Shown here in pieces: positions 24,101-37,991 of a stretch of 64,000 bases of DNA. Each line of letters begins with the position of its first letter. The first letter of the stretch is position 1. The notes under the pieces are model-generated. The model did not search any database, had not been told where the DNA came from, and was given only the letters and a program-made list of their open reading frames with translations. The DNA lies in the IMG/VR virus record IMGVR_UViG_3300020125_000260, one strand, 5' to 3'. Made by a program: the position numbers and the translations under genes. This DNA is from an uncultured virus (IMG/VR IMGVR_UViG_3300020125_000260) (taxonomy: Duplodnaviria > Heunggongvirae > Uroviricota > Caudoviricetes).

Positions 24101-24345
24101 GGATACACCACCGGCCTGAATGTAGCCTTCAGCTTGGCCCAAAATCCCACAGGTTCCTTGGTAGTTCCCTGGCAGCGCGGGCACACTATTTCCCTTACCT
24201 CACCCGCACAGTGTTGCAGTCTAAGGTAGCCGTTCAATATGCCACCACAGAGAGTACAAACACCCTGCGGAGGCTTATCTACAGGAACAAACATCATTGT
24301 TTTAATCATATTAATACCTATATCTATAACTACATTATGGGCCAC
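24097..24345 (-). CDS. Small zinc-finger protein
   Basis: CTLCGG...CPRCQG. Confidence 0.45.
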   Translation of the reverse strand: MAHNVVIDIGINMIKTMMFVPVDKPPQGVCTLCGGILNGYLRLQHCAGEVREIVCPRCQGTTKEPVGFWAKLKATFRPVVYP

Positions 24346-24390
24346 TCAGCGTGGTCGCCGAGTGCGTTGTTGATTCCGATATCTATATAC

Positions 24391-24651
24391 TTAACTTCCG
24401 TATCCGCCATTTCCCAAGTTGCGCCGCAAAGTAAGCGGTACGGGGCCAGTAATACTGCCATCGGGATGAATTTCCGTGAAATCCCCAATCGCACACGCTG
24501 GAGTAATTGAAGCTATATGCTTACCGCTTTTTTCAACGTGAATAACCAATCCAGCCTCAGCACAAGCCATAACTTCACCCGGCTTTGCGCGTAATTCCAT
24601 CATTGAAATAACAGCCTCTTTCCCAGCGTAATCGCGCTTCGGTAGTGTCAT
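24391..24651 (-). CDS. Phd/YefM antitoxin-like protein
   Basis: ISMMELRAKPGEVM...IHVEKSGKHIASITP matches the Phd N-terminal pattern; GGAGG RBS before ATG 24651. Confidence 0.6.
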   Translation of the reverse strand: MTLPKRDYAGKEAVISMMELRAKPGEVMACAEAGLVIHVEKSGKHIASITPACAIGDFTEIHPDGSITGPVPLTLRRNLGNGGYGS

Positions 24652-24669
24652 TCTTTGGCCTCCAATATA

Positions 24670-25076
24670 ATCACTATTCCATGGATGCCAGACCCCCCGC
24701 GCCGGGGGATGCGGATGCTGCGGCGCGGGAGTCCAGCGGTCGTCCAGTATTGAGTGCCCTTCGCGGGTCTTTATACTGTCCCATGCAGCGGGACGGGCAC
24801 TCAGACCGGACATCCTGATGGGTATGGCCGAGTGACCAGCCATGTTTAAGTGGGCGTTAATGCTTTAAACCAGGAAACATTGAGTACCCACACCCATCGG
24901 TCAATGTACTTCCAGCAGGATCATCGCCGTCCTTATTTCGAAGGGAGCAAAGGAGAGTCGGCTCCCCTGCTGGAAACTTAATCGGCTGAGGCCCCTTCGG
25001 CTACCGAAGTCGGATTACAAATCCGGTGCTAGCTCCTGCCTCAGCCTTTTCCCGAGCCCTGCTAGCGGGCATCGGA
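24670..25076 (-). ncRNA. Candidate multi-domain structured RNA including a tRNA-Thr(UGU)-like domain (24984-25046)
   Basis: At least six inverted-repeat stems in a gene-free interval; G-U pairs favour the minus strand. Confidence 0.5.
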
Positions 25077-25080
25077 ACTT

Positions 25081-25959
25081 CTATTTCTTCCCCTGCGAGT
25101 CCAGCGCAAAGAACTGCACCGCCATCGCCCGCGCCTTGGTCGTCCCGTGCGCGCGGTTCACCAGGCACGGCAGGTCGGGCGAGTACTGCCCCGGCTTGCC
25201 CGGCAGCGATGGGAACCGCTGCATGCCGTCGGTGGACTTCGGATACGCCGTCCCGCCGGCCTTCGCAGCCTGCCCACACACGTCGCAGCTGGCTGACCAT
25301 TCACTCCGGCAGAGGATCTCCGGCTCACCCGCGAGGAACTTAATGAAAATCTCCATCAGCGACTTGTGCCCGTAAGTCTGATTAAGCACCAGCCAGGGCG
25401 AACCGTCGGGACGCTTCCCCGCGAGCGTGAGGATCGTCATGATCTTGGACAATCCCTTCTGCGAGCTCCGCGTGTCCGTCCACTTGTACGGCACCTGAAG
25501 GAACACACCGTCCAGCTCCGGGAACCGCGGGTCGATGATCTGCACGTCCATGATAGTCTTGGCGAACGTGCCAGTGACGTTGCCGTTACGGTCCTTGGCC
25601 ACGGCCGGCACCCACTGGGCGACTTCCCCGCCCGCAAGGTACTGCGAGATGTCCACGTTCGCGCCAACGTCCTCCTGTTTCACGCCGCGGAGCTTCAGCT
25701 TCACGCGATAGATCCCGTCCGGCGCCGGTGGCGGGGCTGCGAATGCGTCACCCTCCTTGGCGGTGAGCAATTCGGATGTGAGCGCCGGGTCGTTGATGTC
25801 GGGCAGCGGCTCGGGGACGTGCTGCGTCGAGTTGTCTAGCGGCGGTGCAGCGGCTACGCCATTCGCGGCGGTTGCTGGCTGGTTGGTGGTGTTGCCAAAG
25901 GGTGAGGCCCCGGCGTTCGGCTGGCCTCCGGTTGCGAATGGATTGGTCGTTGATGACAT
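25081..25959 (-). CDS. Putative single-stranded DNA-binding protein (DUF669-like)
   Basis: PAPDGIYRVKL pattern, position after the Sak4-like ATPase; GAGGAG RBS; CxxC..C..H near the C-terminus. Confidence 0.5.
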   Translation of the reverse strand: MSSTTNPFATGGQPNAGASPFGNTTNQPATAANGVAAAPPLDNSTQHVPEPLPDINDPALTSELLTAKEGDAFAAPPPAPDGIYRVKLKLRGVKQEDVGANVDISQYLAGGEVAQWVPAVAKDRNGNVTGTFAKTIMDVQIIDPRFPELDGVFLQVPYKWTDTRSSQKGLSKIMTILTLAGKRPDGSPWLVLNQTYGHKSLMEIFIKFLAGEPEILCRSEWSASCDVCGQAAKAGGTAYPKSTDGMQRFPSLPGKPGQYSPDLPCLVNRAHGTTKARAMAVQFFALDSQGKK

Positions 25960-36174: not shown

Positions 36175-37991
36175 AGTCCCACTCCCAAGTCTGAAGATTT
36201 TATGTAACGTAATTCGTGTTTCGCCCGAGTCGCGGCCACGTACTGAATATTCCGCTCCTGCGCCAGCTCCCAGCCCTGCCGCGACCATGGACAGGGCATC
36301 CACTGACCAGCATCCAAGATGAACACGCGGTCGAATTCCAAACCCTTCGCCTTATGACAGGTCGCCAATGTCACCATCTGGGCCATTCCGCCGTTGCCAT
36401 CGCTAAATAATCCCTCTACCATCCGCACAACCTCTGCGACCGTGGCATTCTCGTCCACCTCGGCACAGAAACACCGCAAGGTCTCACAGCGGTCGTCCAT
36501 AAGGCCAGCCTGCGCGAATTTCTGTTTCCTGCGCAATCGCTCACCCTCCCGCCGCTGATAGTCGTCCAGCCAGTCCAGCAGGTCGCGTACGCTATCGCGC
36601 TTGGACCGCCGTGCCAGATCCACCAGCCCCTTCCCGATATCTCTCCCCAGCACATGACACGCTACCCGCCGCCGGATCAGCGCGAACGCCGCGGCTACCA
36701 CCGGCCGGGTCAGCCGGCAGAGGATGGCGTCGCCGGGGAGGAAGTCCTGGATGCCGCGCCATTTGCTCACGCCTTCCACTACAGGGTCAGCGTAGCCAGG
36801 GCGTCCCGTAGTGGTGGCCCAATCAACTGAATATTTAAGCCCAGTAGCAAGGTCCGTAATCTCAGCATCATGCCTGCCCTTGGACATATCCAGTGGAGCC
36901 CCCAGCGCAACCTCCGCCTGCCCCGCCCAGTCCGACCCCTCCAGCCCCACGAATCCCCACGGCGCGCCGGGGTCAGATTCCGTATAACTCTGGCAGGCGC
37001 AAGTGTCATCGAACTTGCAACCTTGATAGTTATGGTCACTTTTGGCATGGCTACAGCTACACATGGCCGGTCGCGCTTCGATCTGCGGCACCCACTGCCT
37101 GGCGTGTTCGACCACCGCGACGGGGCAGCGGTAGCTCACCGACAGGGGCAGTGGTCGCATCTGGAACCTGCGTTGCAATATGTCCATGCTCTCAGTACCA
37201 GCTCCCCTGAAGCCGTAAATGCTTTGTTTTCTATCACCTACGGCTATTACTCTACCTCCCGGTTTAACCATCCGTGATATCATCTCCATTTGTATACCAC
37301 TTACGTCTTGGGCTTCATCCACCAGCACGACATCGTACTGATCGAACGGCACCCCAGCTATAACTGGTAACATCAACATATCGTCAAAATCGCACGTCTC
37401 CCGCCCCAGCTCAATCGACCTGGCCAGCACCTTCCGCACCAGCGGGATGTTGCACTCCGCTTCATCGAGGCCGTAGTGGTCGATGAGACCTTCCCACACG
37501 GCGGGAGTGTCGTCCACCAGCCCAGTAGTCACAATGTCCCACATGCCATGGGCTTCCCGCGTTATAGGTATCTGCGTAGGCACCAGCCCGATCCCCTTCG
37601 CATACCCCACCAGCTTCCTGGTCGTCTCCCCAAACCGCTTGTTCTCCTCGTAGCTCAACACCTCCCGCATGATGACACTAACCTTGTCATTCTTGACGCG
37701 CGGTTCCCACTCCAGCCCCCCGGCGCGGCGCCACGCGAACCAGCCGGCGGAGTGTAGGGTCATGGCGCGGACGTTCGAGGCGGATATCCTGCGCGCCAGC
37801 TCATCGGCGATTGACTTGTTGAACGCCACGAACACCGCTCGCTGCTCGGGGAACGCGCGCTGCATAATGTTGGCCAGCTCGACCAAGGTATGAGTTTTTC
37901 CACTTCCAGCAACGGACTCGACCAGCAGTGAATCGCCCGTGTGTTCAAACGCTTCGTAAATCGCCTGTTGATATTTACTTGGTACGATCAT
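36171..37991 (-). CDS. UvrD/Rep-like SF1A helicase
   Basis: VAGSGKT, AFNK, TLHS, VDEAQD, VGDRKQSIYGFRGA, SYRCP, TCHKAKGLE, YVAATRA. Confidence 0.93.
   Translation of the reverse strand: MIVPSKYQQAIYEAFEHTGDSLLVESVAGSGKTHTLVELANIMQRAFPEQRAVFVAFNKSIADELARRISASNVRAMTLHSAGWFAWRRAGGLEWEPRVKNDKVSVIMREVLSYEENKRFGETTRKLVGYAKGIGLVPTQIPITREAHGMWDIVTTGLVDDTPAVWEGLIDHYGLDEAECNIPLVRKVLARSIELGRETCDFDDMLMLPVIAGVPFDQYDVVLVDEAQDVSGIQMEMISRMVKPGGRVIAVGDRKQSIYGFRGAGTESMDILQRRFQMRPLPLSVSYRCPVAVVEHARQWVPQIEARPAMCSCSHAKSDHNYQGCKFDDTCACQSYTESDPGAPWGFVGLEGSDWAGQAEVALGAPLDMSKGRHDAEITDLATGLKYSVDWATTTGRPGYADPVVEGVSKWRGIQDFLPGDAILCRLTRPVVAAAFALIRRRVACHVLGRDIGKGLVDLARRSKRDSVRDLLDWLDDYQRREGERLRRKQKFAQAGLMDDRCETLRCFCAEVDENATVAEVVRMVEGLFSDGNGGMAQMVTLATCHKAKGLEFDRVFILDAGQWMPCPWSRQGWELAQERNIQYVAATRAKHELRYIKSSDLGVGL

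Follow-up and report, generated by a model that had tools for sequence, protein, structure and literature searches.

Six small folded RNA modules probably fill a protein-free slot among the DNA-replication genes of an uncultured virus

What lies in a 400-base stretch without protein genes, set among the DNA-replication genes of an uncultured virus? The window analysed here comprises the initial 64,000 nucleotides of a virus record that measures 65,157 bases. Its protein-free stretch probably consists of six small RNA units, M1 to M6, folded separately and lined up one after another, and the operon around it runs in the order Sak4-like gene, probable single-stranded-DNA-binding (SSB) gene, slot, small basic gene, and helicase. 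The coordinates are collected in Table 1. The module labels M1-M13 were coined in the present analysis, and L-numbers denote related loci.

Table 1. Features of the window and of the homologous slots in related loci.
Feature	Position or locus	Strand	Basis or content
Upstream gene, 292 aa, probable SSB	25081..25959	-	25 homologues; follows Sak4-like gene
M1, small hairpin, 7-nt loop	25052..25075	-	Fold
M2, three-way junction closed by a 9-bp helix, with two 6-bp hairpins and a 12-nt junction strand	24984..25046	-	Fold, −29.9 kcal/mol
M3, long helix, k-turn signature, 4-bp C helix, 4-nt bulge, variable apical arm	24910..24975	-	Three phages
M4, three-way junction, 7-bp closing helix, 3' hairpin	24817..24898	-	Fold, pair probabilities, alignment
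M5, helix whose 1x2 internal loop (C facing AU) is invariant, freely variable apex	24742..24810	-	Five phages
M6, G+C-rich hairpin, invariant C-rich loop CCGCA(U)CCCC	24690..24733	-	Five phages
Phd/YefM-like gene, 86 aa, directly 3' of cassette	24391..24651	-	Homologue lengths, Atlas
Conserved promoter-like element	24336..24348	-	Same motif in L022 (5285), L029 (5393), L031 (1352)
Cassette	Window		M1-M2-M3-M4-M5-M6
Cassette	L021		M4-like, M3, M7, M6
Cassette	L029 (SSB 90% identical)		M3, M7, M6, M4-like 3' motif; without M5
Cassette	L022		tRNA-like, M7, M5, M6
Cassette	L033 (SSB 53%)		tRNA directly before M5, then M8
Cassette	L076 (SSB 41%, partial gene)		M5
M7	L021 5040-5092, L022, L029, L031, L032, L097, L099		
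M9, M10	L097 6278-6317, L099, L100, L101; L023 4712-4733, L026, L093		
tRNA-like RNAs with long inserts	L022 4873-5100, L032 582-815, L056 656-880, L059 4778-4985		
Accessory protein genes behind SSB-like gene	L031 from ~1405; L056, L061, L065, L102, L106		

On the minus strand, positions 24670-25080 folded with an energy of −179.6 kcal/mol and a z score of −5.13, and none of 100 shuffles was as good, in line with the dense helices described in the initial annotation. The plus strand also folded better than all 100 of its shuffles, with a z score of −3.10. When every second 400-nt tile of the window was folded on the minus strand, with pairs spanning at most 100 nt and 10 shuffles per tile, the tile of the segment was the extreme among 79 tiles with a z score of −6.75, the next being −2.78 and the median 0.18. 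With 150-nt tiles (213 in all), one inside the segment came second; the top tile, at 37201, sits within a coding gene and was dropped as a candidate. All 14 helix-arm strings listed in the initial annotation were found at their positions, and its hairpin at 25052-25075, now M1, was present as well.

The segment had been described as gene-free, and its non-coding status was borne out, as the overlapping 150-codon reading frame (24391-24843) shrinks to a gene of 86 aa. A homologue search for this downstream frame allowed lengths of up to 151 aa; of the 35 proteins obtained, 34 measured 80-99 aa and one 129 aa. The start is therefore placed at the ATG at 24651, with GGAGG 7 bases upstream, and not at 24843, and translation of the 150-aa frame in full was rejected. 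In the Atlas the 86-aa protein grouped with Phd/YefM clusters (0.93; TM 0.63), and PF02604 was precomputed on four of the 35 homologues; a Pfam search with the window's own protein gave no match. No toxin partner was recognised beside this gene, and the gene was not found in loci L020-L079. The promoter-like element, a putative promoter, is followed by an AT-rich stretch and closes the cassette in L022, L029, and L031; in the window the Phd-like gene stands between the cassette and this element.

On the other side of the segment, synteny and weak fold leads indicate that the 292-aa protein is probably a single-stranded-DNA-binding protein. The gene before it is the Sak4-like one, which matched phrog_124. 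The 292-aa protein itself had no sequence match in Pfam, PHROG, or PDB and no Foldseek match at E 0.001 or better, the weak leads being PrgE (Z 5.7, rmsd 4.5, 124 aligned) and a DUF669 cluster (0.81-0.82). Its residues Cys, Cys, Cys, and His were invariant, and a zinc site is possible.

Searches for a known family gave no match, in agreement with the initial annotation, which had assigned none. Rfam 15 showed zero matches in the window at the gathering score, and on 24200-25200 its best E value was 1.3, with nothing below. ARAGORN detected neither a tRNA nor a tmRNA in the window, and blastn of the segment against a 50,697-record phage collection (E limit 1) found no match. A literature search returned no description of these modules; the supplements of PMC5737381 and PMC5389517 lay outside it and might list them.

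The fold of the segment very probably resolves into six independent, helix-closed modules joined by short linkers, a modular RNA anatomy in which no helix spans two modules. The dense structure over 400 nt could also be read as one large ornate non-coding RNA of the GOLLD or ROOL kind, or as an array of self-cleaving ribozymes, and such RNAs occur near phage tRNAs in the accounts outlined in PMC5737381 and PMC10879173. We regard this reading as very improbable, since no helix encloses several modules, the modules were found separately, and nothing in Rfam matched at the gathering score or with E below 1. No hammerhead core was found, an HDV-like descriptor (home-made, without a positive control) gave zero matches in the cassette, and the theta ribozymes outlined in PMC10879173 found no support there. 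The initial annotation had offered a single structured RNA, a ribozyme, and a switch among its options: the first is not supported by the modular fold, the second had no support from the Rfam or ribozyme-core scans, and for the third no support was found.

One self-complementary hexamer is present both in the loop of M1 and in the M2 junction, and the predicted duplex between the two has 6 bp and −11.2 kcal/mol. A common 7-mer with a self-complementary core lies at 25058-25067 and 25026-25038, and a kissing or dimerisation contact is possible. For M1 and M2 no homologue was found in loci L020-L079.

A k-turn consists of a 3-nt bulge followed by tandem G-A/A-G pairs, with a canonical helix on one side and a non-canonical one on the other. 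M3 carries this sequence signature, with the bulge at 24925-24923 and the tandem G-A pairs formed by 24922-24921 with 24964-24963. The pattern was invariant in all three copies of M3 (window, L021, and L029), while the apex varied. A k-turn descriptor gave eight matches on the minus strand, one of them at 24964 in M3, and three on the plus strand. In the alignment of the three sequences 48/48 cells were paired and two pairs were compensatory, a result that 53 of 500 shuffles equalled and that is not significant.

For M4, the initial annotation had proposed a hairpin on 24877/24901 whose loop would pair over 11 nt with 24817-24827 in a pseudoknot. Only the outer seven of these pairs form (probability 0.985), as the closing helix of the three-way junction, and the proposed 7-bp stem had a probability of about 1e-6 in a nested ensemble, in which pseudoknots are not modelled. 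The alternative pseudoknotted fold of M4 is thus disfavoured within the nested model. The closing helix and the 3' hairpin of M4 were common to the first module of L021, where the interior is replaced. That module was tRNA-like for ARAGORN only at the 90% threshold; M4 received no ARAGORN call at the default, 90%, or 80% threshold and is not a cloverleaf with a canonical T loop. Read from the sequence, CCA follows directly after the closing helix in no module of the window.

In M5, 65/65 cells were paired across the five copies; three pairs changed on both sides, three on one side, and 7/13 never varied. No shuffle among 500 reached its covariation score, and the count of compensatory pairs alone was reached by 93/500 in these five sequences. 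The covariation for which the initial annotation had looked to relatives was therefore obtained for M5 and not for M3. M5 also showed G-U/G-C exchange. The pseudoknot proposed at 24745/24773 found no support: it would draw on bases that belong to the covarying closing helix of M5, and four of the five copies lack the partner strand.

M6 was shared by the window, L021, L022, L029, and L031 and was the final module in four of these five cassettes. Its arms, which MAFFT misaligned, were paired at 9/9, 9/9, 8/9, and 8/9 positions despite differing arm sequences, and 47/47 nt were identical between the window and L029. The M6 loop stays invariant while its stem changes, and the loops of M3, M6, and of M7 and M8 from the relatives are rich in C and U. 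C-rich loop seeds are a known design of small RNAs, and these hairpins (M6, the M3 apex, M7, and M8) might act as antisense RNAs whose pyrimidine-rich loops pair with the purine-rich ribosome-binding sites of host mRNAs. We consider antisense action unlikely: no target tracking the loop variants was found in the phage genome or the loci, where the best matches measured 8-14 nt; the 10-nt match that precedes a start codon in L021 was not kept in the other relatives. In addition, the apical loop is the variable part of M5 and M3.

The minus strand had been proposed as the RNA strand, and this part of the initial annotation stands on the gene direction, on the three one-sided changes in M5, and on the tRNAs of the relatives. 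These give better support than the count of G-U pairs on which the proposal was argued, which is weak at 13/128 against 10/127 for the two strands in the window alone. Across the relatives, sense and antisense folding showed no difference (P 0.22). The cassette sits in a replication module and the plus strand folds well too, so the elements could in principle work as single-stranded DNA, either as priming or origin hairpins beside the SSB and helicase genes or as attC-like recombination sites; motifs of the two kinds are hard to separate by comparative methods, as outlined in PMC5737381. Such a DNA role is nevertheless highly doubtful. The k-turn signature in 3/3 copies of M3 and the G-U/G-C exchange in M5 speak for RNA, tRNAs and tRNA-like RNAs share the slot, and the units differ from one another rather than repeat one site.

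Scans with the SSB-like and Sak4-like genes gave 76 loci with the end of the SSB-like gene, 65 of which were distinct with at least 100 nt downstream; some of the loci stem from similar phages and are not independent. The slot behind the SSB-like gene measured 0.2-1 kb. It held ARAGORN tRNAs in 5/65 loci and tRNA-like RNAs with long inserts, detected by pattern search, in 4/65, and Rfam on 20 related loci reported tRNA only. The first 100 nt past the stop codon folded with z below −2 in 20/66 rows, compared with 6/66 of the coding controls taken from the SSB-like gene's own coding sequence (P 4e-4); the other 46 slots were without strong folding in this fixed 100-nt window. All ten hand-bounded cassette stretches, taken from the nine relatives that have modules in common with one another or with the window, folded at z scores of −2.0 to −10.0. 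In some members of the phage family, this slot is one for small RNAs.

Similarity of the genes did not predict the module sets (Table 1). For example, the M8 copies of L020 and L033 agree at all of 51 nt, with the SSBs of these two phages 54-55% identical. Identical closing stems were observed around different interiors. Because the order M3, M7, M5, M6 is mostly kept, gain, loss, and replacement fit better than free reordering. The motif RRUU, which we take to resemble an RNase E site, stood at 14/37 outer helix starts against a 14% background and was absent from 23/37; it was picked post hoc, the modules are non-independent, and the motif may be part of the stems. The array of small structured RNAs without a known family, put forward in the initial annotation, is supported by the homologues, by the covariation of M5, and by a module content that is patchy among the relatives.

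Further members were sought with models and patterns. A model built on M5 found no further member in 76 sources. The 3'-strand pattern of M3 and its gapped version gave 17 matches each, among which only the L021 contig was real (for the gapped pattern, judged by eye). The M5 pattern gave five matches in viral contigs, L022 again and four chance matches, and zero matches in GTDB genomes. The seven matches of the M4/L021 pattern were L021 once and six antisense to a coding gene. None of 58 candidates among genome contigs was a prophage or cultured relative, and the SSB-like and Sak4-like proteins had no match in the phage collection.

The modules lie inside the operon and ahead of variable accessory genes, M6 is usually last, and a U run follows M6 in L021. 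They might thus act in cis on the operon mRNA, as processing sites, stabilisers, attenuators, or leaders for the accessory genes behind them. We judge cis action improbable, since the flanking genes remain the same around modules that vary in type and count, and tRNAs are interspersed with the modules. Moreover, the promoter-like element parts the cassette from the next gene in three relatives, and a terminator search found none on the minus strand of the window.

The closest known system is that of RNAC and RNAD of phage T4, non-tRNA small RNAs of the T4 tRNA region whose role is unexplained in the accounts given in PMC3014915 and PMC9697503. The likeness is that of non-tRNA small RNAs, here with tRNA in five of the 65 homologous slots and none in the window. 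Sequence homology to RNAC and RNAD was not found in the phage collection (blastn, E limit 1), and the present cassette has six modules, a slot in a replication operon, and content that varies between close relatives. Judged by sequence comparison, the cassette is a real, conserved, and uncatalogued set of small structured RNAs, of the unexplained kind already known from T4 RNAC and RNAD.

Three other systems share single traits with the cassette. Mukai et al. described tandem irregular tRNA-like RNAs from forest and peat soil metatranscriptomes with a possible tie to toxin-antitoxin systems, as outlined in PMC5389517. Irregular tRNA-like RNAs in the relatives and an antitoxin-like gene in the window recall these polycistrons and allo-tRNAs as that source outlines them, but the window modules are not cloverleaves. 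GOLLD and ROOL are structured non-coding RNAs near tRNAs in phage or prophage DNA (outlined in PMC5737381); they are single large RNAs with Rfam models, whereas here independent modules without a match occur in varying sets. T5-like phages likewise have a tRNA-rich accessory region, in which tRNAs are mixed with small genes; part of this cargo acts against host defence in the account of PMC11555353. The active RNA there is a real tRNA, while here mostly non-tRNA modules occupy the slot of 0.2-1 kb.

Two modules resemble sites of ribosomal RNA. M3 has the pattern of k-turns such as Kt-11 of 16S rRNA, and its bulged strand matched 16S rRNA 275-285 at 10/11 bases. M5 has equivalents of G597, U598, A640, U641, A642, and C643 of the S8 site in 16S helix 21 in register, and the (G597-C643)-U641 triple together with the A642 equivalent was present in 5/5 copies; the features of this site follow the outline in PMC4176348. 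An S8 descriptor based on M5 hit helix 21 of E. coli and not 23S rRNA; on the minus strand it found only M5, and on the plus strand it gave three matches. M5 differs from the S8 site by an extra bulged C after U598 and, in 5/5 copies, by lacking the bulged A595 and its A595-(A596-U644) triple. Mimicry of rRNA by sequence was rejected, as 3/26 tests fell below 0.05, with a best value of 0.01, and this fails after multiple testing; E. coli rRNA served as a stand-in in these tests. As M5 is without the A595 triple and the rRNA likeness does not exceed chance, no decoy target is named.

Of the ribozyme, switch, and decoy suggested in the initial annotation, the decoy is the most plausible. In the mechanism that we propose, the modules would be co-transcribed with the upstream SSB-like gene, because the space between is too short for a promoter, M1 starts 5 bases past the stop codon of the 292-aa gene, and the minus strand is free of a recognisable terminator. 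Host RNases (RNase E and/or P) would cut the short linkers and release stable RNAs of 25-85 nt, as in phage tRNA clusters, and recombination in the linkers and shared closing stems would allow modules to be gained, lost, and rebuilt. The released modules would act in trans and for the most part engage RNA-binding or defence proteins of the host, as decoys or as ligands, since conserved internal loops in exchangeable helices (the k-turn of M3, the 1x2 loop of M5) form the pattern of a protein-binding site. Decoys are also favoured because the other cargo of the slot, tRNAs and an antitoxin-like gene, is typical of counter-defence in the accounts of PMC11555353 and PMC9964418; according to the former, host defence is countered by tRNAs from the tRNA-rich region of T5. 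As a whole, this mechanism, in which modules cut from the operon transcript would bind proteins as decoys and so serve host take-over or counter-defence, is put forward tentatively and with slightly more doubt than belief, its function being deduced from pattern and context.

A bolder and unlikely version is that the slot holds an exchangeable library of RNA effectors, in which mimics of host sites, by analogy the k-turn, an S8-like loop, and a tRNA elbow, would be mounted on shared processing stems and swapped between phages, as accessory genes are, to titrate ribosomal proteins or defence RNases. If true, it would be an RNA counterpart of the anti-defence gene islands. What the non-tRNA small RNAs of phage tRNA regions do has been a standing question since T4 RNAC and RNAD; it becomes testable with separable modules that show natural presence and absence as well as covariation, each of which can be tested alone.

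Candidate families missing from Rfam 15 are at least M3, M5, and M6, together with M7-M10 and the tRNA-like RNAs with long inserts. M7, a covarying hairpin with a conserved apical motif, was present in seven relatives, distant ones included, and not in the window. M9 and M10 are other recurring modules of distant relatives in the same slot. The long-insert tRNA-like RNAs showed acceptor, D-like, and T arms with a long unrelated insert at the position of the anticodon arm; neither Rfam nor ARAGORN called them, and their possible identities are tRNAs with introns and a new family of tRNA mimics. L031 1125-1226 is an irregular tRNA with a long variable arm, which scored 46.7 bits to RF00005 and had no ARAGORN call. 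L032 carries two cassettes, at 574-890 behind the SSB-like gene and at 1471-1680 before the small basic gene. Accessory protein genes occur in the slot as well, one RNase H-like and several HNH-like as judged by eye.
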